64,000 nt of DNA from Ruditapes philippinarum. Its lineage: Eukaryota. A model generated the notes under the pieces. The model made no database searches, was not told the DNA's origin, and saw only the letters and a program-made list of their open reading frames with translations. Location of the stretch: positions 178,878-242,877 of the forward strand of contig NW_026857783.1 in assembly GCF_026571515.1 (NCBI RefSeq), given 5' to 3'. How positions within the stretch are numbered: position 1 is the first letter of the stretch; every line of letters starts with the position of its first letter. The translations under genes were made by a program, and so were the position numbers. This document shows positions 17,006 to 58,600 of this stretch, piece after piece.

Positions 17006-17745
17006 GTAAATCAATAAATACTTGGTTTAAACATATTTTTATTCAAAGTAATATATACATGTTAAAATTTACAATTTAAGCAGAAAGGAATTGGACCGAG
17101 AGCTACAATAGCTCATGGTAGTCCTCTCCTTTAACAAAAGCAATATGTTCATACATGTATATTACATGGCTTATCATAATTTTAATTAAACCCTATAAAG
17201 AAGGAAAATGAAGAGAAAAAAAATACAAATACATGTATGCAATTGATAGAAAATAATAAAGAGAAAGATGGAGAAAAGAGGAGTTTGCGGATGTTTCTAT
17301 ATCATTTGTCGTTTTGGTAGGAACATCATGTATGGAAAAAAAAACACTTTATTTTGAAGTGATAAGAAAATTGTTTGTGTTGATCAGGTATATGATTTAT
17401 AGGGATTTATAGATTGGTGAAAGTGGCAAGGAATCAAATAAGTTATAACTTGATTGCATTTTATAAAAGTGCATGTAATCATACTGTAGACAGGCTAAGA
17501 GCACATTTTTAAACAGATTTTTGAAGTTCTTATACATTCTTATTGTTCAGGTTTACCTGCTTTGTTATTAAAAATAATGTCCTAAAGATAATTTTTGTTA
17601 ATACATTATAGAAAAAGATAAGCATTTGGGCTTGATAACATATATCCCAAAGATATTTATATCGTTTATTAATGAGATGATACTTAAAAAAAAGTTGTAT
17701 AACATGAAATAAGGTAAAATACTTGAGGTTAGTGATTTGAGCATC

Positions 17746-24349: not shown

Positions 24350-24453
24350 GAAAGCCACCAAAACCAAAAAGTTCACATTTGTTTGTAAAAACTTTGACTG
24401 GCAAAACTGTGAATCTGGACTTGAATACTGACTGTACTATAGCTGACTTAAAG
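24350..24453 (+). CDS. ubiquitin-like domain, N-terminal half
   Basis: (R)KPPKPKSSHLFVKTLTGKTVNLDLNTDCTIADLK parallels ubiquitin MQIFVKTLTGKTITLEV; acceptor ttgatctag|, donor AAG|gtattt; no in-frame ATG, so it is an internal exon. Confidence 0.75.
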
Positions 24454-25725: not shown

Positions 25726-25870
25726 GCTATGATACAAGACAAAGAGGGTATACCTCCTGACCAGCAGAGACTGGTTTACGCTGGACGTCAGCTAGTAGAT
25801 GACTGGACATTGCAGGATTATGATATACAAAATGAGTCAATGTTACATCTTGTATTGAGATTAAGGGGCG
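25726..25870 (+). CDS. ubiquitin-like domain, C-terminal half
   Basis: [48 protein letters not shown](G) parallels ubiquitin [47 protein letters not shown]; acceptor caatcaag|, donor G|gtaagt. Confidence 0.85.
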
Positions 25871-26195
25871 GTAAGTCTGTATGTCTTAAATATAGAGTAA
25901 AGGGAGATAATGCATGTTTCAATAACATCAGTCATAGTTGAATCCTTTATTTATTGGAAAAAGAGCAAAAATAAAGGATGATAAAATAGGTGTATTGTCT
26001 AAACATTATGAAGTATAATGACAATTTTTCTAATTTATAATTCTTTTGTTTTAGTTATTTTTGTCATTGTATGAAAAAAAAGTTAATTTCATGAAAAGAC
26101 TAAAACACTCTTGAATATTTGAATATTTCAAGCATTTTACTGTCTGTATGGAAATTTGTTTAACTCCAGTGAAAATGGTTATTCATTTCTTACAG

Positions 26196-26248
26196 GACCA
26201 TCAGAAGATCAGGTACTTAAATTTAAGAAGGCAAGAGGACTTTTGAAG
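26196..26248 (+). CDS. short linker exon
   Basis: (G)PSEDQVLKFKKARGLLK; acceptor tttcttacag|, donor AAG|gtaaaa; phase 1 to 0. Confidence 0.5.
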
Positions 26249-26774
26249 GTAAAAACATAATTATAATTATGTATTGATTAAAATGAAATACACAGGTTTT
26301 TTGTCTTCACCATATGGCTATATAGAAATCACTTTATTTAAGAAACAATATATCCCAAACAGTGATTTTATTGCTCTATAAAATCACTGTTTGGAGTTTG
26401 GATGTGAGGAATTATATTACGTGGGCATATAATGATCCTTATCCGAACGGCAAACAGTGATTTTATCAGGCATGTGAATTTATTATTTAATGAGTTCAGA
26501 TTTTCATAACACTGACTTTATAACCTGTTTTTGTAAGGAAAAAGGCAGCAGTATTTCTCTGACAGTAGTTTCACCACTATTAGATTTGTATTGTTTGGGA
26601 ATTTATAGCTGATAGTAGTCAGATGAGGCCTTTCCTTTAGGCCAGAATTTTTAGGCCAAATTTTAGAGCATCTAGCTTGCGTAATCTTTAAACTAGTGCT
26701 TTGTCCTGGTGTCTAGAGACATTTTGATCTGTGTAGAATAACATTCCATTAACTTGAGTAAAATTATATTCCAG

Positions 26775-26834
26775 CATGAAAGAGAAGCCATGTCAAAGAT
26801 TTCTGCAGATGTTAATGAAACTAAAATGCTTTTA
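26775..26834 (+). CDS. Ykt6-like R-SNARE motif, N part
   Basis: [20 protein letters not shown] parallels Ykt6 [15 protein letters not shown]; acceptor atattccag|, donor TTA|gtaagt. Confidence 0.7.
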
Positions 26835-26869
26835 GTAAGTTCTCCTTTAGTGGCCCTATCATTGCTTTG

Positions 26870-27050
26870 TTTTATATAGCTGTTTACATTTCACTTTACT
26901 ATTACACTTTACTTTAATGATATGCATTTAATTACTATTACACTTTACTTTAATGATATGCATTTAATTACTATTACACTTTACTTTAATGATATGCATT
27001 TAATTACTATTACACTTTACTTTAATGATATGCATTTAATTAAAAAGAAA
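26870..27050 (+). repeat. 35-bp tandem repeat x~5
   Basis: tattacactttactttaatgatatgcatttaattac repeated head-to-tail. Confidence 0.75.
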
Positions 27051-27614
27051 TGAGGACACCGTTCTGGACTCACTGGTAATAATGCAGGCTGTCAACCAAT
27101 TTCTAAAATTATATTCCTTTATAAGTAAAATTATACCTATTTGCAAAAATACTTCCTATATTAAATTTTATAGTATATTCTCCAAAATTATTCCTGCGTT
27201 TGGACAAAAAGGTAATCTAAGTCCTGAAAAAAATAATGTTTTTTTGGCTTGCTATGCTGGCAATACCATTGGATTGTAATTCTAAGTAAACATCAAATCT
27301 TGTTCCTATATTATTTCATTATTTTGGCTTAAACAGGTCTAAAGCCAGTTAACAGGTTGAAAATGTTGACTTAATATCCATTCCCCTATTCTTTGTTTGA
27401 CAAAGTTACTGAGCATGGAAAGTTAGAGGTTCAATTTCTAAAATGATGCATTGCTGATTTTGAGTAATTGATTTTCCCAGCTTTAAATTTATTCAAAGTT
27501 TTTAAGATTTTAAAATCAAGATACAAAAATTGAGCTACGAACTGTATAGAGCCAAGTCAGACTGCATGGACAATCTTTATATGGCAAGTTGTATTTATGG
27601 TTTTTGAATTATAT

Positions 27615-27849
27615 GAGCCGCGTCATGACAAAACCAACATAACCCGTTTGCGACCAGCATGGATCCAGACCAGCCTGCACATCTTCGCAGTCTGATCAGG
27701 ATCCATGCTGTTCGCTTACCAACTCTATTACAAGTAGAGAAACTGATAGTCAACAGCATGGATCCTGATCAGACTGCGCGGATGCGCAGGCTGGTCTGGA
27801 TCTATGCTGGTCGCAAACCAATTCTGTTGTTTTTTTTGTGACGCGGCTC
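27615..27849. mobile_element. MITE family M, full copy with ATAT TSD
   Basis: gagccgcgtcatgacaaaaccaacataacccgtttgcgaccagcatggatccagaccagcctgcacatcttcgcagtctgatcaggatccatgctg...tgtgacgcggctc; flanks atat|...|atat. Confidence 0.8.
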
Positions 27850-28032
27850 ATATATACAGCTTAACAGATGAATTTACAGAGGTAAATCCCTTAGAGATAC
27901 AGAAACTAGTAGTCCAGTTAACTTCTGGCAGTCCAAGTTTCAAAAACATAAAGGTCTTTACATTGTAACCAAATGCATGCTTCCCCTGAAACTGAACAAT
28001 ATTTTAACCAATGTTTTTTTCTCTCTTTTTAG

Positions 28033-28134
28033 AATGAAAATATACAAGCAGTACTGGAAAGGGGAGAAAAATTAGATGAATTAGTAGAAAAGTCAGGAGA
28101 CCTAAGTTTACAGAGTCAAATGTTCTATAAAACT
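28033..28134 (+). CDS. Ykt6-like R-SNARE motif core (zero-layer Arg)
   Basis: [34 protein letters not shown] parallels Ykt6 [38 protein letters not shown]; acceptor ctctctttttag|, donor ACT|gtaagt; 34 codons. Confidence 0.85.
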
Positions 28135-29202
28135 GTAAGTTTATCACATATTATAGAATGTATCAAAGTAGTATACTCCTAATGCATTACCTCCCTTTGA
28201 AGACTATTTAAATGGGCTAGGACTCAAATGTAAACTGCATTGAAAATGAAGGTATTTGGTTTAGACCGAAGTGTGGCCAACTTTTCAGCTGAACAGAGCA
28301 CATTGTTAAGTGCTGAATAGGTGAGCTTAAATTGTGATGGCAGTGTGTCCGTCATTTGTCAATTTATCCGCAAGATCTAAACTTCTTGATGGATCTTGAC
28401 CAAACTTCACAGAAATGCCACTACAGAAGTTGTATAATGGTTTCAGTATGATGCATTTAAGTAGGTCAAAGGAGCTAAAAATATACTTTAAAAATGAAAT
28501 CTTTAAAAATATTTTCCTCACAAACTACAATGCCCAGTGCTAAGATATTTGGCATGTAGCATTACCTTGTCAACATCTACAAAACTAATATAAATCAGGC
28601 CCCAAGGATCAAAAATGGCTTGGCTTTAGGGTTCACTTAGTTTACATAGGGTTATATAGAAAAAAAATACATTTAAGTCTACTTTATGAAACTGCAATAG
28701 TGTAAAGAAAAATAAAATTGATGAGTATGAATCAATTAAAGTGATTTATTAAATTGGTGCATGTGTGCAGGTCCTGTTGGGTTATACAATTTCTTCTATT
28801 CACAAATTCTACATTTCTCAAAGGGATTTTAGCCGCACTTCAAAGAAAGATTATCAACATATCATATTTTCGGGATTTTATGAGGTAGAATTATGGCCCT
28901 TTTGTGTTTGTTTCTGCTCGCAGATGTAATTCTGATGAAAAACTGTTTTATAATCATTTTTTTCATAGTCCCTCATGTACAGACTCAATCAAACTAAATC
29001 TGTTTATTTTCATGTAATTTTCTTGTGATTAATGCCTTCGAGGGATCACACTTTCTCCAGATTTTTATACATCACAACAGCAGGTGTCAAGCATGTGAAG
29101 TACTGAATTGACTAGATTTCAATAAATCTCTGCAATAAAAGTATTTTACCCAAAGATGAGCATAGTATATCTTTTAAGTTTAAGATTTTTCCTTTATTGC
29201 AG

Positions 29203-29426
29203 GCTCGCAGCAGAATTGATGACGATATGGAAAGAATGAACGTATATGATGGAACATCTGAAGAAGAAGAATCTGAAGAGTCAGATTTTGAATGTTCAGA
29301 AACTCTTGGAGTTGAACAAGAATTTGGAGTAGATCTTACTGCTGAAGAAGAAAGAGAATATGATTCAGATGATTCGGAAGGAAATTCTGAAGATGAACTG
29401 TTACATGAAGGACTGCAGATGAACTT
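29203..29426 (+). CDS. acidic (E/D/S-rich) exon; ends at GTGAGT donor, alternatively at in-frame TGA 29428-29430
   Basis: ARSRIDDDMERMNVYDGTSEEEESEESDFECSETLGVEQEFGVDLTAEEEREYDSDDSEGNSEDELLHEGLQMN; acceptor cctttattgcag|; donor GTGAGT at 29427 overlaps stop TGA; phase 2 continuation is compatible with exon 33448. Confidence 0.6.
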
Positions 29427-30035
29427 GTGAGTTTTTGTAAAGGCTATTTAGCTTTTTTTATATTTAGCTAGATTATACATGTATGTAGCTTAATAATGAA
29501 GTGGCAGATGATAATTATTGTCCATGTGTATGTTCAGGTTTTTTTTACTGAACCATTAAGCTTTGTCAATATTTTTTAAATAACTTGGCACAATAATGTT
29601 TGTTCACCATCACGAAACAATATGTCATAATTTAAATTCACAATAAGATGTCAATAATTAGGAACCATTACTGTTTCATTCCATGGGCATTTTTTATTAT
29701 TTTAATTAGATTTTCCAACAAAAAGCTCAGGTAATAAGATAAGTGAATATGGACAGACAGGCATTAGAGTGTGCCTAAGTTGTTAGAGTGTGCCTAAGTT
29801 GTAAACATTAGGTTCTCAGTGTAACTGAATATTTCTGTAACTTGGCAGTTATAAAAAAAGGGCTTACATTCATTGTAATGACTATTACACCTTCAAATAC
29901 ATATCTCTACCAAAGGTAATAACTTAAAGGTCATTCCGACAAGTTTGTTGGTAGTACAATGTATGCGAATTATGTTCTGTTCCAATAACCTGAGGATTTG
30001 TGCTGGGATGAGATACCAGCAGGGAGTTTTTTAGC

Positions 30036-31700
30036 TCACCTGTCACAAAGTGACAGGGTGAGCTTTTGTGATCGCTTTTCGTCCGGCGTCTGTCCGGCGT
30101 CCGTCCGTCCGTAAACTTTTGCTTTAAAGGACATCTCCTCATAAACCACTGAGCCAATTTCATCCAAACTTCACAGGAATGTTCCTTTGGTGGTCACCTT
30201 GAAAAAATTGTTCAAAGAATTTAATTCCATGCAGAACTCTGGTTGCCATGGCAACCGAAAGAAAAATCTTTAAATATCTTCTTTTAAACAACCCTAAGAG
30301 CTAGAGCTAAGATATTTGGCATGAAACATCTTCTAGTGAGTGTTTACCAAGTTTGTTCAAATAAAAGCCCTGGGGTCAAAATTGGCCCCGCCCCAGGGGG
30401 TCATAGATTTTCCCTATATGCATATAGTAAAAACTTAAAAAATCTTCTTTTAAAGAACCCAAAGAGCTAGAGCTAAGATATTTGGCATGAAACATCTTCT
30501 AGTGAGTGTCTACCAAGTTTGTTTAAAAAAAAGCCCTGGGGTCAAAATTGGCCCCGCCCCAGGGGGTCATTGATTTTCCCTATATGCATATAGTAAAAAC
30601 TTAAAAAATCTTCTTTTAAAGAACCGAAAGAGCTAGAGCTAAGATATTTAGCATGAAACATGTTCTAATGGGTGTCTACCAAATTTGTTCAAATAAAAGA
30701 CCTGGGGTCAAAATTGGCCCCGCCCCAGGGGGTCATTGATTTTCCCTATATGCATATAGTAAAAAAATCTTCTTTTAAAGAAACCAAGAGCTAAGATATT
30801 TGGCATGAAACATCTTCTAGTGAGTGTCTACCAAGTTTGTTCAAATAAAAGCCCTGGGGTCAAAATTGGCCCCGCCCCATGGGGGGTCATAGATTTTCCC
30901 TATATGCATATAGTAAAAACTTAAAAAATCTTCTTTTAAAGAACCCAAAGTGCATAAGCTAAGATATTTGGCATGAAACATCTTCTAGTGAGTGTCTACT
31001 AAGTTTGTTTAAATAAAAGCCATGGGGTCAAAATTGGCCCCGCCCCAGGGGGTCATTGATTTTCCCTATATGCATAAAAATTATAGTAAAAACTTAAAAA
31101 ATCTTCTTTTAAAGAACCCAAAGAGCTAGAGCTAAGATATTTAGCATGAAACATGTTCTAATGGGTGTCTACCAAATTTGTTCAAATAAAAGCCCTGGGG
31201 TCAAAATTGGCCCCGCCCCGGGGGTCATTGATTTTCCTTATATGTGTATGGCAAAAACTTAAAAATCTTCTTTGAAAAAACCCATATAGCTAGAGATTAG
31301 ATATTAAGCATGAATCATCTTCTAATCAGTGTCTACAAAGTTTGTTTAAATAAAAGCCCCGGGGTCAAAATTGGCCCTGCCCCGGGGGTCATTGATTTTC
31401 CTTTTTTGTGTATAGCAAAAACTTAAAAATCTTCTTTGAAAAAACCCAAATAGCTAGAGTTTAGATATTAAGCATGAAACATCTTTTAGTAAATATCTAC
31501 AAAGTTTGTTCAAATAAAAGCCTGGGGGTCAAAACTGGCCCTGCCCCAGGGGTGTCATTGTTTTTAACTATATGTGTATAGTAAAAACTTAAAAAATCTT
31601 CTTTTAAAAAACCCAATGAGCTAGAACTTAGATGTTTAGCATGAAACATATCTGGCCCTCTTGTTTTAGATCTTGAGACAGCAAGATATTTTATGCCTAG
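30036..31700 (+). mobile_element. satellite-bearing element: perfect 33-bp hairpin head, (GTCCG)n tract, then ~9 units of a 165-180-bp satellite
   Basis: agctcacctgtcacaaagtgacagggtgagct hairpin at 30036-30068; tcgtccggcgtctgtccggcgtccgtccgtccg; unit ...gagctagagctaagatatttggcatgaaacatcttctagtgagtgtctaccaagtttgtt..aaagccctggggtcaaaattggccccgccccagggggtcattgattttccctatatgcatatagtaaaaac; related head at 61140-61320. Confidence 0.7.
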
Positions 31701-32216
31701 CCCCTTTAAAAGGTAGGGAGCATTGTGATTTTTGTAGGGATGTCCCCTGTAATCATGTCAATTAATGAATATAGTTCAAATATTACTTAAACCCAAAACA
31801 CAAACAAATTAATTAATTGCTATCATAGTCCAATCAGTAACTTTAAGTTTATTTACTCAAAAAGGACATTACATATGAGCATTAGCTGACCTTTAAGGTC
31901 AAAGGTCAGGGTCAAGGTCTGAATGACGCTTTGGGTAAAATCCTTGTTTGATCAGTATCTTGAGTTTGTGAATTGCCCATGATCAGTAGAAAACCCCTAC
32001 TTATTATGAGCTTATTTAATACTCAAGGTCACAGTGATGACCTTGTGTTACAAAGTACAGTACTCAAAAAGTCATACTTAACATAGTGGTTCTCTGGTGG
32101 AAACCTCTGCTTAGATGTTATATAAATATTTGTAATTATATTGGTTTGAATATTTTTGTTTTCTTTATAAGTTAATTTCCAATTTTGTTATCATCCAATT
32201 CGATGTTGAATGTATG

Positions 32217-32965
32217 TATACCGTATAAGTGGTTTTTTCTGCGGGCTCCAAATTCTGCGGTTTTTCCAAATTTTGGCATGTTTTTATTTCTGCGGACTTT
32301 ATTTCTGCGGCACAGTCTTTGGACAAAACGTGATTTAAATTCTGCGACTCATCTTTTCAAAGTCTAAGTCACATTACTCTTCCTATTTTATTTGCATTTA
32401 CACATTCGTATTAAAATTTTGTTTATCGTCGTCACTGCAAAACTATATAGTAATTACAAACAATTATATTGTTTGCTTGCAAACAAATATAATGTGCATA
32501 TTTGATCAGCGTGAAATGACGTGTGAAAAATATACCCCGGTAGTATCTTTAATTTAATAAAATTGATAGAAGTTTATCGTAAATCAGACAACAATTAATG
32601 TATACGACGATTATTTAGCAGTATAAGGGTTAAAATGATTTTAATGATTTAGTAGTTAACAAACCTTTTTAACGTACAGGCAAACACTATGATGTTTAAA
32701 TATCTTTATTCATAAATTGGCATAATTAACAGTAGGTACATCCTTTCAAGCATATATTACATACTTAGCCGAAATCAATTTTATATAACTCGATGACCCG
32801 CTAACCTTTATAATCCGTTAGTCGTTATTACTTTAGATGAAACAGGTCATAATGTAGGACACATATCGTTAAAAAAAACATGGAGAAATATTCTGCGGTT
32901 TTTATTTCTGCGGTGCTGAAACTGACCGCAGAAAACGCAGAAATAAAGTCACCGCAGAAAAAACC
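32217..32965. mobile_element. ~750-bp non-autonomous TIR element with perfect 28-bp TIRs and internal TTCTGCGG repeats
   Basis: left tataccgtataagtggttttttctgcgg (32217-32245), right ccgcagaaaaaaccacttatacggtata (32935-32965); AT-rich interior, no ORF. Confidence 0.7.
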
Positions 32966-33447
32966 ACTTATACGGTATATTATCAACTCAAGTCTTGCAA
33001 CTTATTTTGTCTTCTTCTTTTTTCAAGATTGATCTCATGTATGTCGGTGTTGAATGTATTATTATGAAATCAGCTTGTGTTATTATTTAATCTCTTGTAT
33101 TGTATTTTGTATATGGTTTTGTATATTGGCGAGGCTCACAGAGAAGACTGCTCACAGGGAAGACCGAGCTTGCCCAACTGTGTTGCCTCATTAAATAAAG
33201 TCGTTACTTACTTGCTTACTTACTTGCTTGCTTGCTTACAGTACAGTACAGTACAGTATTCTCAGTGATAGGTTTGTGAAAGTTATTCATCATAATACTA
33301 TTATTATGAATGTTTCTTATCAATATAATACATAGCATTTATAAATGTAAATATACTGTGGCAGGCAAATCATAAAAGTTCAGGCATATTAGTCTCCTGT
33401 CTGTATTTAGACACAATAAAAATTATTTTAAATTTATTTTATTTCAG

Positions 33448-33484
33448 CGAGTCAGACAATCAATTCAAAGGCTGGGCAATGGAG
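33448..33484 (+). CDS. 37-nt micro-exon (candidate)
   Basis: acceptor ttattttatttcag|, donor GAG|gtataa; with upstream phase 2 reads (F)ESDNQFKGWAME and hands phase 0 to exon 34059. Confidence 0.35.
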
Positions 33485-34058
33485 GTATAATTATCATTTT
33501 TACTAAAAAGAGTATAATTGATATAAATAATATAATATTATAAAAAACCTTTTTAAATCTTTAAGGCATGATTTCTTAACCCTTTGTAGCAGCCATATAT
33601 TGGCACATACCTGACTGTAACTTTGTTATTTATATTAGACATACAACATAATTACATATGATAGTTAATTTAAAGGCATTTACTATAGCTACCGGTACAT
33701 ATAGACATAGAGGGCAAAATAAATTAATGTAACCCCTAAAAATGAGCTTCAGGTGCCCTACAGTTTCGACAGAACATATTATAAAACATTTCAAAGATTG
33801 ATTACTCACATTGTTGTCATACTGTTTTGATTATACATGGATAGCAAAAAATCTATGTTTTTTAAAACTTACACATGTAAAAATAGAATTAAATGTTCTG
33901 GAACAAAATGTACAGTTGTAATATAGAAGGATTATTTACAATTTTGTGCATGTGCCGACACAAGCTTTATGGGAATTTTATAAACATAATGATTTCAATT
34001 TAAATACTTTGGTAGTCTGATTTTCATAAATATGCAAACATATTTCTAATTATTATAG

Positions 34059-34665
34059 ATGGCACAATCCTATGAGAAATTCTCGGCACAGGCAGAGGTA
34101 TCTACAAAAAGGCTTATGGATGTAGACACACATAAAGCTACGCCTGAATTAGAACAGATGTTAGATGCTGGAGCTGATACAATGTTTAAAAAAGTAAACT
34201 CCAAATCGGCAGCATATGACAGTGATGATGAATCTTGTGATGATGATATGGGATTTGATCTTTTTGGGGGGGATAGTTATGAAAAACAGGAAAGGTCTTC
34301 ACCTAGTCCTGTCTCACGTAAAACACATGGTGGAATGCTCAATCGTGACATACATTTAAGATCACCTATAGAGATAGAGAAAGAAGAGATTGTCCAGAAA
34401 GCTGTATCACATGTAAATGTAGATATGCTAGAGTGTAGTGAAGAGCCTGAATTTGCATACTGTTTGAGCATGGAAAAAGACTATACTGAACCTATGGAAG
34501 AGTGTTATGAAGATGATGACATTTATGAGAACCCTGAAGTTGAATATGAAGGTCAGAGGGGGACCTTTGCAGATTTGAGTCATGACTTATCTGCACGTGA
34601 ACAAATTACTATGAAAGCAAATGTAGTATCAAGTTTTGATAGTGAACCTCAGTTTGATGAAATTG
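34059..34665 (+). CDS. large acidic exon containing ribosomal P-stalk-tail-like motif
   Basis: 607-nt ORF MAQSYEKFSAQAEV...DSDDESCDDDMGFDLFGGDSYEKQERSSP...; acceptor tattatag|ATG; donor TTG|gtgagt at 34666; ATG sits at first exon position. Confidence 0.65.
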
Positions 34666-36173: not shown

Positions 36174-36241
36174 TATCTGGACGGCCAAGCTTTGGTGGTG
36201 GTGGAATGCCTGATAGTGTGGAAATGGACCAGAAAAAAAAG
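36174..36241 (+). CDS. short exon (SFGGGG motif)
   Basis: (V)SGRPSFGGGGMPDSVEMDQKKK; acceptor tgttacatttcag|, donor G|gtaatt; phase 1 to 0 and in frame with the big exon at 41161. Confidence 0.5.
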
Positions 36242-41160: not shown

Positions 41161-42444
41161 AAAAAACCAGCAAGGAGAGCAATGAAGTCACATTTCAAAG
41201 CTCCTGAATCATCAAGTATTAGTTCACAAGCAGAAAAAGCAGAAACTGGCCTCCCTTCTCATCTTCATTTGAGTAATTGTTCCATGGCACCACAGTTGCA
41301 TCAGCTAATGGCACCACAATTGCAGCAAATGGCACCACAATTGCAGCCGCAAATGGCACCACAATTTCAGCAGCACATAGCACCACAGGTGCATCAACAA
41401 ATGGCACCACAATTGCAACAGCCACAACAACAGCTAGATATGCCACAACCTAATGCAAGAACTGATAAATTTATGTCTAGGTCTAAGCCTCCTAAATTTA
41501 TGTCTAGGTCTAAGCCTCTTGAAACTTATTCTGCATTGGAAAGGTCTGATGAATCATTGATGCATCAGATGGATAAAATTCCAACAGTGCATAATTATTT
41601 TTCAACAAGTTCTCCTTTTTCTCCTGCACCATTGAGTGCACCACCACCACCCCCACCTCCTCCAGGGGATACCCCAAGACCCACACCACAACTAGGGGTT
41701 GCTATTATTCCTTCATCTTTTCAAGTAGCATCTAGTTATCAAGCTCAGATACCAAGTTTTGGTTTTGGTGCAACAACGGGTGCATCACCACAACCCCCAC
41801 CTTCATCAAATAATGCGACTATACCACCCCCATGTCCTCCAATGCTTGCCCACAGATTCCAACCATCGAGAGCTCCAAGCTATTTATCTTTCGAAGTAGA
41901 GCCTAGATATGCAGCTAAAGCACCAAGTTTTGCTTTTAGTGCAACAACGGGTGCATCTCCACCACCACCACCTCCTTCAAAGGAAGCTCACAGACCACCA
42001 CCTCCACCAGGGGGTGCCCCCAGACCAACACCACCACCACCTCCAGGGGGTGCTCCCAGACCACCACCACCTCCAGGGGGTGCTCCCAGACCAGCACCAC
42101 CACCACCTCCAAGGGATGCTCCCAGACCTCCAGCTTCTCCAAGGGGTGCTCCTAGCCCTTCATCTTCTCTAGTAACATCTAGACATCCAGCTCCAGATCC
42201 AAGTTTTTCTTTTGGTGCAACAACTGGTGGATCTTTGGAAATGCTAAAAAGTTGTCCCAATATTAGCCCTATTAAGAGGATGATTGCAATGTCATTATCT
42301 AAATCTGCTGTTGATGATAATGATATGGAGTTTACCAAAGCCTCTAAGCAGGAAAGCAAAGAAATACCTGAGAAGAAAAGCATTGAAGCTCATGTTAGAA
42401 GAAATTATGGGGGAAGGAGGGTAGATATGCGTGAACTTCAAGAG
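41161..42444 (+). CDS. 1284-nt low-complexity exon: Q/P-rich MAPQLQQ repeats, FG-type PSFGFGATTGASP repeats, polyproline PPPPGGAPRP repeats
   Basis: long ORF in frame from acceptor ttttttttgcatacag| (41159-41160) to donor GAG|gtttgt (42445); 428 codons; repeat structure explains the overlapping antisense ORFs. Confidence 0.7.
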
Positions 42445-45829: not shown

Positions 45830-45959
45830 GATTCCCTGAATGTTTCTAAAGAGGACGAACTTGAACAAGAACTAAGAAAAGAAATGGAAGAAGAGAGGAG
45901 CAAACCACAGGTATCTTGGAGGGCAATGTCTATGCCTAGAAGTGAAAGAATATGTGATG
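45830..45959 (+). CDS. charged exon
   Basis: DSLNVSKEDELEQELRKEMEEERSKPQVSWRAMSMPRSERICD(G); acceptor tttcctttcaag|, donor G|gtaagt; only this donor (not CAG|gtatct at 45911) keeps downstream exons open. Confidence 0.5.
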
Positions 45960-50927: not shown

Positions 50928-52249
50928 GTAAGTACAATCAGGTAGCTTTTAGTGTAAAAGTATTGCTTTCAGACTATACAACCATGTATAATATAGTGCA
51001 GATACACTGATGTCCCAGTCCAATTTGTTTGACAAATGGATGCAATAAGTAATGTAAGCTTGGAAAAGTGTACTAGTAACTTGAACAAGGGTGAGCATAT
51101 AGTCGCCGCTTTGTCCGTCCGTGCATCCGCTCTCACGGGACAGTAAAAATGTGGCTAGTGGGACAATAGGTAATTGTTCTTTCTCTTTGATGTCATTCAT
51201 TCCACGATGCTTTTATGTGGCTATTTTCTTTTGTGTGGATAGAGAACAATAGAGTAGCCACATTATTACTGTCTCATTGGAACATAACTCGGACATAACT
51301 CTGAAACCGTAAGAGGTATCAACATGAAACTTTGTAGGAAGATTGGTCTCATTATATAGAAGTGCAGTGCAAAAGAACCATAACTCTGCCTTGCTTAATT
51401 TGGTTATAGTTATTGCCCTTTGTTCATTTTTATGCTTTGAACTATGTCTGTGACATAACTCTGACACTACATGAGGTATACTTACCTGTGTCCAAAACCT
51501 ATTCAGGGAGCATCACTTGGTTTAACTGCTTCTTGTCTTGACTATAAGAATAGTGCTTGAGCTTTCATATGCAAAAAGAGTAAGTTTTCATGCATCTGCA
51601 TCAACATATCACTTTAATTATGGTGTTGTGTGCAACTTCTTGAACAATTTCATGTCTCATGAGTCAAAGATATTTGCTTGAAACTTAAAAAGTTAAAAGT
51701 TTTTGAACCATAATTCAAGGTTTAATTCTCAAAGATGCAAAAAGTTAGTATGCATATTGACTGAATTATGGCCCTCTGAACTTTGAAAATTACTGGTTAA
51801 AGTTTATTTTTTCCAAGCCTTAAAACTCAATTTTGCTAGTCTAGGTATTCACTTGACTCTAGTATCATAACCAGGGGTCACTTTCCACTGCCCATAATTC
51901 TCGTGTGGATTAAAATATAGCCCTTCTTCCTGGTTCAGTTTAGTGTGCAAGATCTATTCACTTGAAGTCCTTAACACAGTCATGTGTTTCGGATCATAAT
52001 CACATGCTTATGTAAGTGAGGAGAACCTTTGAAAGTACTTTGTATATTATTTTATAAAAAAAAACTTGACACTTGTAACATCCATAAATGGCAATATGTC
52101 AAATATGCATGAGTACTCATTTTCGTTGCTTTGTCAAAACATACCGGTTACTATGATAACTAATTGACATTTGATTCTGATGATTCCATTGAAAACAAGT
52201 ACAATAAGCTGCTTTAATACAAAAAACAAATCATTGCTTTGTTTTACAG

Positions 52250-52349
52250 AATGGTTACTGGGAGATGAATGATAATTTGGAGAAATTACTCTGCATTGAC
52301 TTCAGTATCTGTAAATCTGTTCTGGAGACAGCTGGCTTAAAATCACTAG
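52250..52349 (+). CDS. C-terminal domain exon (NGYWE motif; possible VIT/VWA-family C-terminal/MVP-binding-like region)
   Basis: NGYWEMNDNLEKLLCIDFSICKSVLETAGLKSL(G); acceptor tttgttttacag|, donor TAG|gttggt. Confidence 0.55.
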
Positions 52350-52789
52350 GTTGGTATCATTTTATTGGCATTTTTCTAACCCTTTTCCTGTGTGATGGAA
52401 TTGCCGGATGATCAGTTGGAAATATTTCATTCACAGTTTAATGACATGCAATTCAAAATATAAAAAGTTGAGACAACCAACCTACAACCTAGTGCAGGGT
52501 TGTCACACTATTTCAAACGTTTCTCACCACAGTGTTGGAGCAGTACAAGATCCAGACCCTTCCAGAAATCATGATCACAAAGTAGAAAAATATTGTTTGA
52601 GCCTTTTTTTCGATAATTCTGATATTTTTTGATAGTTCTTATATTTTTCATTCATTATGATATATAAATCAGGAGATTGAGTATTTAATCATTGAAGGGC
52701 CTTGTCCAGAATTGTACCGGAATATGCTATTAAGTACTGTACTCCAACACTTTTTGTCCCCTACCGGTTTAACTGGAGGGGACTTTAGG

Positions 52790-53175
52790 TTTACCCTCCG
52801 TCCATCTGTCTGTCCGTCTGTCTGTCAGTCCATCAGTCCGTCCGTCCACAAAACTGGATCCCGCAATAACGCAAAAAGTACTGAAAATATTTTTATGAAA
52901 CTTGATATATGGATAGATGGCAGTATGGAGATTATGCACGTCTTTTTCTTTTCTTCCTATGTTGAAAATTCTGGTTGCTATGGCAACAAATAGTCTGAAA
53001 ATATGGCAAATTTAACACATAAACTGGATCCAGTGATAACTCAAAAAGTACTGAAAATATTTTTATGAAACTTGTAAAATGGATAGATGCCAGTCTGCAG
53101 ATTATGCACATCTTTTTCTTTTCTTCCTATGTTAAAAATTCTGGTTGCTATGGCAACAAATAGCCTGAATTTCAA
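52790..53175 (+). repeat. (GTCY)n head + ~180-bp tandem repeat x2
   Basis: ccgtccatctgtctgtccgtctgtctgtcagtccatcagtccgtccgtcc then two units aaactggatcc..ataac.caaaaagtactgaaaatatttttatgaaacttg...ttctggttgctatggcaacaaatag. Confidence 0.65.
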
Positions 53176-53987
53176 GATTTCTGATTTAAATTTTTCAGCT
53201 TTTTCACTATAAGTTCTTTATTTCTTAAGGTGTTTACTTCAAACTTTAAATATAAGTTTCTGGTCATCAACCACATCATATGTGACAAGGTTTACAACTC
53301 TAGCACAAAATCAGTATTACCACCCTTGAACTTAGAATTTTTATGAAAAAAAAAATGTCTTCTTTAAATAACTTCTTTATTTCCTAATGTATCTACTTCA
53401 AACTTCATATATATGTTTCTTATTATCACTCAACATTTTTGAGAAGGTTAAATACTCTAGCAAGACTATTTCCAGAATTATGTCCCCCTTGAACTTAGAT
53501 TTTTTTCGAGAAATTGGTATTTTTTGGTAACTTCTTCATTCCTTATAGGATTTACTTTAAAATCCCACATCATAATAATATGACAAGGTTGTATAAACAT
53601 AATTTCCTTACTAGGCAGGGAAACTTAACACATTACTGTGAAATAGACAAACTTAGAACTCAAAAGATTTAAGTTCATTCGTGTCATTTATTCACTGGTA
53701 AAATTGAAATCAGAATGTTGCTGGGGTTCTAATCGGTAGGGGACTTATGGATTGCTTGCAATACTATGATAATTGCTTGTTTACTCTCACTTGACTATTT
53801 TTAGCAGGGAAACGTTTACGATTAATGAATTTCATAAATAAATATTTCACTAATAAAAGTCCTTACTTAACACTAACAGAGATGTTATGATCATCTTGTG
53901 ATTTTGTTGATGGCAAGAAAACCTTAGTTTTGTGACAACTTCATGTCACTTGTATAATTATGATAATGATGATGTCATTTATTACAG

Positions 53988-54397
53988 GATTAAAATGCCA
54001 CGAGGAAATTCTTCACCTTATTTCCACCGCCATAGTACTGATGCAAATGTTCAAGCTTCTGTTGCCACAAGCGTTTCCTCGTAACTGTAAGCTATACTTC
54101 GATGACAGTCAGGATGCCGTCATGATCAAATTGGTGTCTGAAAAAATCGAAATTACAAAATTTGATCCGGCTGGTACAGACAGGGATACAGTAAGGACGG
54201 CAATAGATATGGCTTTTGAATTCTGGGTATGGGCAGATAAAAGACACCCACTGGTTTGTACGAGTCTAGAGCTGGGGTCAAACTGGTACGAATTTGTTGG
54301 ACGCTGTTTGAACTTGCATAGAGAAGGCATTAGCCCAAAAATACAGGAGAAAACAATGTTTGCGAAAAGCACTGTAAAACAACCGATTTTGGTATAA
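53988..54397 (+). CDS. terminal coding exon with TAA stop
   Basis: (G)LKCHEEILHLISTAIVLMQMFKLLLPQAFP...WVWADKRHPLVCTSLELGSNWYEFVGRCLNLHREGISPKIQEKTMFAKSTVKQPILV*; acceptor catttattacag|; total CDS 639-54397 is 6639 nt, a multiple of 3. Confidence 0.6.
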
Positions 54398-55625: not shown

Positions 55626-58600
55626 ATGTTTTACATTGCACATAGTTACATTGTTTGTTGCTTGTATTTGTATTTCAAATACAACATATTTATCTACAAT
55701 GGTGATAATTGAAAACCTGGTTTCATGGCATTGCCATGTTTCTTGTTATTTTTAAGTTTGCAAATATGCTTTATGATCATTTAACTGAATGAAAAGAAAA
55801 GGTTTTTCAGCATTATACTGTATAAGTGGTTATTTTGTTATGTGGAAATATTTGTGATATTTGCAAATTGAAATTATTCGTGCTAAAGAAATTTTTTTAT
55901 GCAAACTTTCTTCTATCATTTGCAAACACGTTTTCATACAGCATCTTACATGAATAAGTTTGACTGTTCAGGTACTGAGATTATTTTTTTCTCATTGCTT
56001 GTTTGTTTAAGTTCCGTTTTAACAAATCACAATTGTTTAAATAAAACAATATAATGTATTAATAACACAATAGGTTATTCATATAACAAAAGAAATTGTT
56101 TCAAAATATGACAAAAAAATGTGTAATCAGCTAGGTATTTATCATACTAACAATGTTTATTTCAAACAGTTATATAAATAATAAAAGTACGAGGGATGTC
56201 CGAAAAGTTCATATACTTCTTCATTTCTGATTGTATAACAATACATACATTGTACAAATTTTGTCAGGAAAGATATATATATTCTGCGAACACATTTATA
56301 AAAAAATACTGAACTGTGACTTACGTTTGTATTTTAACAGCATTTACATACAACATATATACATCGTCATGGAGCACTTTGACAACGTCAACGGCGTCAA
56401 TTTAACTTCATGTTTACCCACTATTCAATTTCTTCCGATTTCAACAGCCATTGTACCTGTCTGGCCTATACTTAATACATGTTATGTTGCTTTTACTTTA
56501 TGAATTTCATATTTTGAAATACTATTTTAAAACAAAAATGTCACTGGTTCCCAGTGTGTGAGATGTCTGTCTATTTCAAAGGTTGTTGTAACGCACTGTA
56601 CGATATTTCGCCCATGCTACCTTTGGTCGTCTTGGGCATTTCTTATACGATATACTGTCATCGCCGCTTCTTAATCTTGTTTGACATTTAAACACAAGTT
56701 GCCTTTAACATTTTATGGTTGGTTTTATTTTTAAAGTAAAGATTTAAATCTGAGTTGGTGCCATATTAGCGTTGCTATGAAGTTAAATATCATTACCTTG
56801 CTCTGTCCGTTTTTGCAACACAAAATTTATGCACCTTCGTTGCCAATAACCGTCGTTAACAAGCTGTTTATTTACGTATGACGTCATAATTTTCAGTAAA
56901 TATCATGTTATAGTATCTGATGATGTCGCAAAATTAAAACAAGAGTTTGTATTAAAATTACAACTTTGAGCAACTTATTATTCTAGTAGCTATCGTCATG
57001 AAATCAAAGTTCTCCGTGATTCGTTGATCATGTTGCCATGGTGATCGGCGCATTGCGAATATTACTTTTATCATGTTTTTTAATTTAGAAATATGTAGCA
57101 AATAAATACTTTAGCAAATTATTCAATCATTGTATTGATATGACAGCTTATTATAATTGTATAGCCTTGTCTACGAACTTTCCGGACAGCCCTCGTATTT
57201 AACAACTTAATAGAACAAATACAAAAACGGTATATTCTTAAATTGTATGTGCGTAATATATTTCGGCGCGCAAAAAGTCCACTTTCTGACATTCTCAAAA
57301 TTTTTGTGAGGCGTAAATATCCACTTATACAGTACATGAATACTGAAATGTACTGTTTATTTAATGAACTACTTCTGACGAAATCAGTTTTGTGGAGGAA
57401 GACAAAAAATATTATTTTGATTGGGTCAGAAAAGCTTTGAGATAAGTGTAAATGTTTTCTGTATTTAAAAATAATTTATATTTTTCTTGGTTTCAGGTGT
57501 AGTAGCATTGATTATATATAACTATCTATATTGTATTTTCACCTAAACATATATATGTATTTATAGCCACAAGAAAAAAGAAGTTCAATGAGTGCAAAAG
57601 ATTTTTTCAATACAAATTCGATTTTTTTTTCTAGAACTGTGATAAATTGTAATTTATTTATTTTTTGTTGACTTCCATAGTTATTGTATTTTTAGTTGTT
57701 TTGGTCTGAGTCAAACTTTGTGTCTTACTTTAGATCCTAAATTACCAGAGATTTAAGTTATTTTAAAAGGTACCAACTTGAAACGTGGTATACTTGGTTA
57801 TCGTGACAAGTTGCAATTGTAAGCATTACTTTCCCCTTATTCTTCTTTTTAGCTTGGAATATTTGTCAAAATTGCCTGTTAAGTAGAATGATTTTAAAAC
57901 TATGAAAGGTATCAACATAAAACTTGGCGTACTTGATTATTATGACAATGCACAGTTGTAAGACTATAGGTATTATCATTTCCCTTTTTTACCTGAATAT
58001 TGACAAAAATTGGTTATCTTAACAGACAAGTGTTAACAACCTATATATGGTGCTCTTATTTTGTATTTTGATATTGAATCCCTTAAAGCTGTATACCTCA
58101 AGATAGATCAAAATATTTCAAAAAAATTCAAATCTGAGAAAAATGTACTAAGATTTAAGGAAAAGATTCAAGATTTGAAGAAAAATTTGCATGTTATGGG
58201 CAATTAATGATTGATTTTTCAGTATTTATTACCATATTTATATTGCTTTCCTAACGCAGTAAATGTTATTTTCCAAAATTTTGACCTTATTTAATTATTT
58301 CTCGCGGGTTGTGAGTGCTATTTGTAATGTGTAGATTGCTTCATTTTGGTAACTTCATATTTTTTTACTTTTAAAAATTTCATGAACATTAGCATGAATC
58401 TGGAGGCGTGCTGCTTTAAACTGCATAATGGGTGTCATGTTTATCCATTTAAATGGTTTCGCTTGGCTTTTAGCCATTAACTGGTTAAAACTTTCAATAA
58501 ACAGTAACCAAGGTTAGCATTATACCAATAGTCAAACAATTTTAAGTATGGTTTTATTTATTACCTTTGTTCTACTCTGACTAGATACAACATTTTCTTT

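Follow-up and report, generated by a model that had tools for sequence, protein, structure and literature searches.

The exon at 29203-29426 on the + strand of the window (by which we mean the whole 64-kb stretch of DNA analyzed here) runs, if read on without splicing, into a stop codon that lies within a consensus 5' splice site. This raises the question of whether the stop serves to switch between a short and a long protein, as an earlier note on this DNA had claimed, or whether it comes along with the splice consensus. Positions 29422-29433 read AAC TTG TGA GTT (wider context, CAG ATG AAC TTG TGA GTT TTT), and the coordinates and frame that the note had given were confirmed in the sequence: the GTGAGT occupies 29427-29432, the TGA occupies 29428-29430 (+2 to +4 of the donor), and the unspliced reading across 29427 yields a single codon, TTG, followed by TGA, which is the first in-frame stop of this 224-nt acidic exon and is read only upon intron retention. 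The designation of the GT at 29427 as a phase-2 consensus donor was likewise upheld by the sequence and by a junction scan, with the frame open from the acceptor at 29203 and with use of the donor causing the exon to end at 29426, two bases into a codon. As compared with CAG/GTRAGT, the site (CTT/GTGAGT) matched at 7 of 9 positions, the intron side being consensus (GTRAGT) and the exon side, CTT, being off the CAG/AAG consensus.

The donor at 29427 and its embedded stop

Stop trinucleotides located inside GTRAGT, in the register G/TRA/GT, made up 0.68-0.70% of all those in the window, and of the 155 ORFs, counted over both strands, that reach 60 codons or more, 1 ended in a stop within GTRAGT, namely the ORF of the acidic exon. 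The probability that a true terminal stop lands in a perfect donor by chance is less than 1%, whereas for a real phase-2 donor a stop in this position is the expected picture. Owing to the rarity of such a coincidence, the donor at 29427 is probably genuine, and this rarity, together with the downstream exons of the gene (see below), makes it very likely that the donor is in actual use. We consider it likely that 29427 represents a U2-type 5' splice site of the ordinary kind, which closes an internal coding exon in a PARP4 orthologue. Decoding of the TGA at 29428-29430 as selenocysteine, or its read-through, was entertained and rejected: between 28 and 36 kb, there was no Rfam match at E<=0.1, SECIS included, and the same frame encounters another stop 6 codons later.

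Any phase-2 intron starting with GTAA or GTGA is certain to read NNG TAA or NNG TGA when it is left in place; with a stop at +2 to +4 arising automatically from the combination of phase 2 and GTRA, the TGA itself carries no information on a switch. Among the 18 donors mapped in the gene, 12 start with GTRA and 7 are GTRAGT. The sole other phase-2 donor among them provides an internal control, in that the site at 17006-17009 on the + strand (CAG/GTAAAT) contains a TAA at 17007-17009 that overlaps the GT in the same manner. The junction at this donor is confirmed by homology, with the spliced product ...TVGV-S-GTADRHML matching Lingula PARP4 ...TLGVSATANKYLL. Retention of any of the 18 mapped introns would bring in a stop within 1-35 codons (median 4). 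The "compact arrangement" for a short/long switch that the earlier note had read into the overlap of stop and donor is unsupported by these data, since the stop at 29428 follows from phase 2 plus GTRA just as it does at 17006.

The effect is already known, and the feature at 29427 is of an ordinary kind. In Yarrowia lipolytica, GTGAGT or GTAAGT in phase-2 introns gives rise to an in-frame stop (Mekouar et al. 2010, PMC2911113), a rule that covers 19.3% of the introns of this yeast and that was read by the authors as easing nonsense-mediated decay (NMD) of unspliced mRNA (PMC2911113). Like these phase-2 introns, in which TGA or TAA occupies +2 to +4 whatever the length of the intron, the intron at 29427 carries its stop directly in the donor; unlike the genome-wide statistic of Yarrowia, the present case concerns one intron of an animal gene, read from DNA.

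Identity and extent of the PARP4 orthologue

The window is eukaryotic DNA with 30-40% G+C, short exons and long introns. Judging from domain content and homology, the gene to which the acidic exon belongs is an orthologue of PARP4 (vault PARP) on the + strand, which begins upstream of 1.4 kb and reaches 54.4 kb. Along this strand, we detected a PARP regulatory domain at 1.4 kb (Pfam PARP_reg, E=0.0018, which is under Pfam's curated cut-off), a PARP catalytic domain at 6.6-7.4 kb (Pfam, 9.6e-11), a VIT domain at 9.6-11 kb (Pfam, 9.7e-35) and a vWA domain at 13.7-18 kb (Pfam VWA_3, 9.3e-14). Searches with the region following vWA retrieved the PARP4 proteins of Lingula, Anneissia, Ridgeia, Bulinus and vertebrates (E values down to 5e-121), and between 11.9 and 21.1 kb, these homologues could be placed on the individual exons. 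At the upstream edge, the ORF at 639-818 had no Pfam match, and the window may start inside the gene. Human PARP4 comprises BRCT, PARP, ITIH-like VIT and vWA domains, a disordered region and a C-terminal MVP-interacting domain (PMC10450202). As in human PARP4, the PARP regulatory and catalytic, VIT, vWA and MVP-interacting domains are found here in order and on one strand; compared with the domain survey of the human protein (PMC10450202), the window gene adds a ubiquitin-like domain (UBL), three apparently YKT6-derived exons, and long acidic and Pro/FG-rich exons, all of these extra modules being situated between vWA and the MVP-interacting domain.

The downstream end of the gene was located with vertebrate PARP4 C-termini, for which tblastn gave + strand alignments at 52247-52402 and 53987-54334, the best match being Gekko PARP4 (E=2e-4). 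The MVP-interacting domain begins with an exon at 52250-52349 (+; NGYWEMNDNLEKLLCIDFSICKSVLETAGLKSL-G), and the last coding exon, at 53988-54397 (+), contains the rest of the domain and ends in ...KQPILV with a TAA at 54395-54397. When joined, the two exons matched residues 1582-1701 of human PARP4 (PDB chain 11jf_P, 1724 aa; E=5e-5), in which the MVP-interacting domain constitutes the extreme C-terminus, residues 1570-1724 (PMC10450202). A search with the last exon against 1.8 billion representative proteins returned 16 relatives, all of them fragmentary models, including one annotated as PF26156 PARP4_MVP-ID; relative P0024, a bacterial Ig-repeat protein, was discarded. Relatives with 95% and 61% identity conserve the last exon and its start, the 95%-identical copy being located on a 912-bp JGI metagenome contig (P0018, L004). 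Metagenome contigs were also scanned, with this 95%-identical relative as the target, using two back-translated patterns from the acidic exon, of which one gave no match and the other hit one unrelated bacterial contig.

Two gastropod loci (L005 and L006) split the MVP-interacting domain after ...KSLG, at the same place as in the window; the upstream flanks of the two gastropod loci carrying this domain contained nothing alignable, with one of the loci being full of assembly gaps. The 903-aa gastropod model P0032 (assembly GCA_000002075.2, which we take to be Aplysia californica), another of the 16 relatives, combines Pro-rich sequence and GATTG/FG repeats with the MVP-interacting domain, and its GGATTGGATFGS repeats, located upstream of the domain, are akin to those in the window at 41161-42444. 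With the conserved C-terminal domain positioned at 52250-54394, production of the canonical protein requires splicing past 29427, and the acidic exon is internal to PARP4 given that the gene runs on to 54.4 kb. The notion of a read-on past 29427, as put forward in the earlier note, is thus supported indirectly, by a conserved MVP-interacting domain of the same gene downstream on the + strand.

We also weighed whether PARP4 might be split, with the TGA being the genuine end of one gene, a second gene starting from the ATG at 34059 and the GTGAGT being coincidental. In line with such a division, the ORF at 34059 starts with ATG right after an in-frame TAG, no acceptable direct in-frame splice from 29426 to 34059 was found, and gastropod database models are themselves split, with Bulinus model P0009 ending after the UBL while P0032 and P0027 (281 aa) are C-terminal only. 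However, the chance of a true terminal stop falling within GTRAGT is ~0.7%; the TAG before 34059 belongs to a good acceptor (ttattatag); and the ATG has a T at -3, which makes for a poor initiation context. In addition, two of the split models, P0032 and P0009, are likely annotation artefacts. P0032 starts next to assembly gaps, and in Bulinus truncatus (GCA_021962125.1, L001 19240-19262), the PARP4 model P0009 ends in ...RLRGGGGK plus stop at cgaggaggtggag/gtaagtaa, where the "stop" results from reading through a consensus donor, GGAG/GTAAGTAA, whose phase-1 position corresponds to that of the window donor at 25871. The Bulinus model is, by this comparison, probably truncated. With these points in mind, we regard two separate genes as highly improbable.

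Non-exonic GC skew was 0.10-0.14 over ~4-18 kb and near zero elsewhere in the gene, with repeat content as a possible cause. The skew had been tried as a marker for the end of transcription (0.073 before 29.2 kb vs. 0.016 after) and was dropped, as it was confined at 2-kb resolution to 4-18 kb and was uninformative for 29.4 kb.

YKT6-like exons and the route onward from 29426

The exons leading up to the donor begin with the UBL, which is encoded on the + strand by exons at 24350-24453 and 25729-25870, the second of which ends in LVLRLRG(G) with a phase-1 donor and can be aligned with the corresponding domain in PARP4 of Bulinus truncatus. Joined, the two exons matched Pfam ubiquitin at 3.3e-26, and the UBL is a feature shared with the Bulinus model P0009. 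The best partner for the UBL donor at 25871 (GCG/GTAAGT) is the acceptor ttcttacag/G of a candidate linker exon, (G)PSEDQVLKFKKARGLLK, at 26196-26248 (+; phase 1 in, phase 0 out), for which homology support is absent. Upon splicing to 26196, the LVLRLRGG of the UBL is followed by Pro (GG-P-SEDQ), and a Pro after GG would be expected to resist cleavage by deubiquitinases. Between the UBL and the acidic exon, every junction combines a strong donor of the GTAAGT type with a pyrimidine-rich acceptor, and the phases are compatible.

Two SNARE exons on the + strand follow the linker, and together they matched Pfam Synaptobrevin at 1.1e-9. The first, HEREAMSKISADVNETKMLL at 26775-26834, aligns to YKT6 ...SLMKIQDELDETKIIL and has the same exon end; the second, NENIQAVLERGEKLDELVEKSGDLSLQSQMFYKT at 28033-28134, whose splice sites were scanned, displayed 71% identity to a spider YKT6 in tblastn (E=4e-10), with VLERGEKL kept, including its Arg, the SNARE zero-layer residue. 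A SNARE exon had initially been guessed at ~27040-27090 and was discarded on comparison with YKT6, which revealed that 26775-26834 joins 28033 directly. The next junction, from 28134 to 29203, is in phase 0 and joins SNARE exon 2 in frame to the acidic exon (+; ARSRIDDDMERMNVYDGTSEEEE...LHEGLQMN; acceptor ttattgcag/G; phase 0 in, phase 2 out). The frame of this exon is open from ttattgcag/GCT onward, while the other two frames hold 3 and 13 stops, and its codon score is 0.47 per codon vs. 0.03 and -0.91 out of frame.

The exon structure itself recalls that of YKT6. In Argiope bruennichi YKT6 (L008), the last three exons respectively end in ...DETKIIL, end in ...TFYKT and start with ARKTNQCCVIL-stop; the corresponding exons of the window end in ...NETKMLL, end in ...MFYKT and start with ARSRIDDD..., and both introns share their position and phase (phase 0) with the spider gene. 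The AR at the start of the acidic exon is hence a positional match to the start of the YKT6 terminal exon, and where YKT6 has ARKxNxCCxIx, the acidic exon continues as ARSRIDDDMERMNV.... We view the acidic exon, on this positional evidence, as the homologue of the YKT6 terminal exon that has lost the CCxIx tail and carries ~70 acidic codons. Longin-domain exons were absent from the entire 64-kb window. Because intron positions and phases match those of YKT6 whereas the longin exons are absent from the window, the segments 26775-26834, 28033-28134 and 29203-29426 appear to have been copied at the DNA level from the 3' portion of a YKT6 gene into PARP4. In summary, the block resembles the R-SNARE gene YKT6 in two aspects: 1) a SNARE exon that is 71% identical; and 2) phase-0 introns after ...ETK(I/M)(I/L)L and ...FYKT. 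It differs from YKT6 in three: 1) there are no longin exons in the window; 2) the CCxIx lipidation motif is replaced by ~70 acidic residues; and 3) the SNARE exons lie in frame behind the ubiquitin-like domain of PARP4. Going by these likenesses and differences, the SNARE block is a captured fragment and not a YKT6 gene. Searches with peptides of the SNARE, acidic, putative micro- (see below) and 34059 exons retrieved spider YKT6 only, over the SNARE part, and no protein spanning the junctions.

Whether this block is a constant part of the mRNA is a separate matter. One may imagine that, in the main mRNA, the UBL donor at 25871 is joined to a phase-1 acceptor located past 34665, leaving out the linker, SNARE, acidic and 34059 exons, with the donor at 29427 then being of importance in minor transcripts only. 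The block from 26196 to 34665, counted with the candidate micro-exon at 33448, amounts to 1083 nt (3 x 361) and has phase 1 at both ends, so its skipping would preserve the frame; in addition, the 10 kb that follow the Bulinus UBL contained neither a SNARE nor an acidic exon, suggesting that the block is lineage-restricted. On the other hand, the block contains four consecutive exons with an open frame, strong splice sites and codon use like that of homology-confirmed exons, and its SNARE is 71% identical to YKT6 with the Arg of ERGEKL retained, all of which we take as signs of selection on the protein. We deem such an optional cassette very unlikely, and it would in any event leave the nature of the site at 29427 unchanged.

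If the donor at 29427 is used, as we favor, the transcript has to find its way to the MVP-interacting domain. The earlier note had proposed a route via 33448 and 34059. The frame arithmetic of this proposal is right: the TT at the end of the acidic exon would be completed by C at 33448, 12 codons would follow up to GAG/gtataa (33484/33485), and the next exon would be entered in phase 0 at tag/ATG at 34059. The 34059 exon is also coding-like. The 37-nt micro-exon itself ((F)ESDNQFKGWAME, 33448-33484, +) is a candidate, being one of 264 single exons that could bridge 29426 to 34059 in frame, among which it ranks 11th by a crude splice score. Most of the bridges ranked above it are 1-7 nt long, lie within a satellite or have a negative codon score, and among the sensible candidates it has the best acceptor along with a positive codon score.

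The large acidic exon at 34059-34665 (+; MAQSYEKF...DDDMGFDLFGG...FDEI) derives from a 211-codon ORF and has a phase-1 donor, TTG/GTGAGT. With a codon-score model trained solely on homology-supported exons, it scored 0.32 per codon vs. -0.30 and -0.97 out of frame, exceeding all 74 minus-strand ORFs; a homologue search with its product yielded no match. The motif SDDESCDDDMGFDLFGG within this exon (~34230-34270, +) resembles the C-terminal peptide of ribosomal P-stalk proteins but is internal here; Pfam Ribosomal_60s was absent at E<=1, and the likeness may be convergent.

Beyond 34665, the route in the earlier note falls short, since the phase 1 of this exon end is incompatible with the phase 0 of 41161 and a second bridging exon is required. 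An example is 36174-36241 (VSGRPSFGGGGMPDSVEMDQKKK), one among 335 candidates. From 41161 onward, the exons at 41161-42444, 45830-45910, 52250-52349 and 53988-54397 (+) join directly in frame. The first of these, at 428 codons, features MAPQLQQ repeats, polyproline (PPPPPGGAPRP) and FGFGATTGASP / FSFGATTGGS motifs. Exons could be chained in frame all the way between 29203 and the TAA at 54395, encoding 936 aa with no internal stop; as it uses two hypothetical small exons, this chain speaks for feasibility and is not proof.

Intron retention, polyadenylation and the short-isoform idea

We propose that the internal exon of PARP4 ends two bases into a codon and that, as the intron starts with GTGA, the unspliced sequence reads TTG TGA, the TGA arising as a side effect of the donor consensus. 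Normally, splicing would remove the intron, and translation would continue via the poorly conserved exons 34059-34665, 41161-42444 and 45830-45910, along with predicted small exons, into the conserved MVP-interacting domain up to the true stop at 54395. Were the intron occasionally retained, the TGA would act as an immediate premature termination codon, and NMD would be expected. According to established NMD rules, a premature stop upstream of exon junctions renders an mRNA a substrate for NMD; by these rules, unless intronic polyadenylation takes place, an intron-retaining mRNA is expected to be degraded rather than to serve as a source of protein. A short protein ending in ...LQMNL would need cleavage and polyadenylation within the intron, since the stop would otherwise precede many exon junctions.

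Composite terminal exons with intronic polyadenylation do occur, as exemplified by the secreted vs. membrane forms of the IgM heavy chain. Applied to PARP4, the donor at 29427 would compete with intronic polyadenylation to produce a short form ending in ...LQMNL, with PARP, VIT, vWA, UBL, SNARE and an acidic tail and without the MVP-interacting domain, vs. a long vault-binding form. The acidic exon is homologous in position to the last exon of YKT6, which must once have been followed by a poly(A) site, so that the acidic exon may itself have carried one in the past, and the immediate stop would make for a clean short product. Against this, the stop is uninformative, being automatic for phase 2 plus GTRA; intronic polyadenylation is uncommon on a per-intron basis; and the short/long switch of the earlier note finds no AATAAA or ATTAAA for 933 nt past the donor (29431-30359). 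This hexamer-free stretch is the second longest among 19 donors, and 20% of random window positions have a gap of that length. The first AATAAA hexamers after 29427 fall within a 166-bp satellite inside the intron (30263-31649; 8.4 copies, 88% matching). The satellite also carries several spurious GTGAGT "donors". In this genome, the absence of AATAAA is weak evidence, because the true 3' end of the gene is also without a nearby canonical hexamer (the first AATAAA is at 56040, ~1.6 kb past the stop); the scan covered canonical AATAAA/ATTAAA, and non-canonical signals are possible. Like the IgM heavy chain, PARP4 has a 5' splice site at a coding end, closely followed by a stop when read without splicing, so that alternative C-termini are possible; systems of the IgM type have a functional intronic poly(A) site and two documented mRNA 3' ends, whereas the present locus, read from DNA, has no canonical signal within 933 nt. 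Balancing these points, we consider a composite terminal exon unlikely.

A more specific variant would be that the acidic exon still works as a terminal exon of the YKT6 type, with the donor at 29427 pitted against a non-canonical or distant poly(A) site to yield two forms. We rate this as quite unlikely. If true, a vault-independent PARP4 with a UBL and an R-SNARE and without the MVP-interacting domain would exist next to the long vault-binding form, and the isoform switch would have been created by capture of the 3' end of another gene. As a separate observation, an AATAAA is found at 25970, 99 nt past the UBL donor at 25871, where the reading frame runs on through the donor; the ingredients for an intronic-polyadenylation isoform would thus be present in the 25871 intron, if in any, rather than in that at 29427.

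Returning to our preferred reading of an ordinary internal donor, the embedded stop is a consequence of the splice consensus and is not to be taken as a regulatory device. For annotation, gene finders that accept donor-embedded stops truncate genes, with Bulinus P0009 as an example, and the same mistake at 29427 would remove ~900 residues, including the vault-binding domain. A PARP4 with what appear to be three YKT6 exons, intron positions kept, would be a clear case of DNA-level exon capture and deserves an investigation of its own. In our view, the more notable finding is not the stop in the donor but the predicted ~54-kb PARP4 gene itself, with its accretion of domains in the disordered middle.
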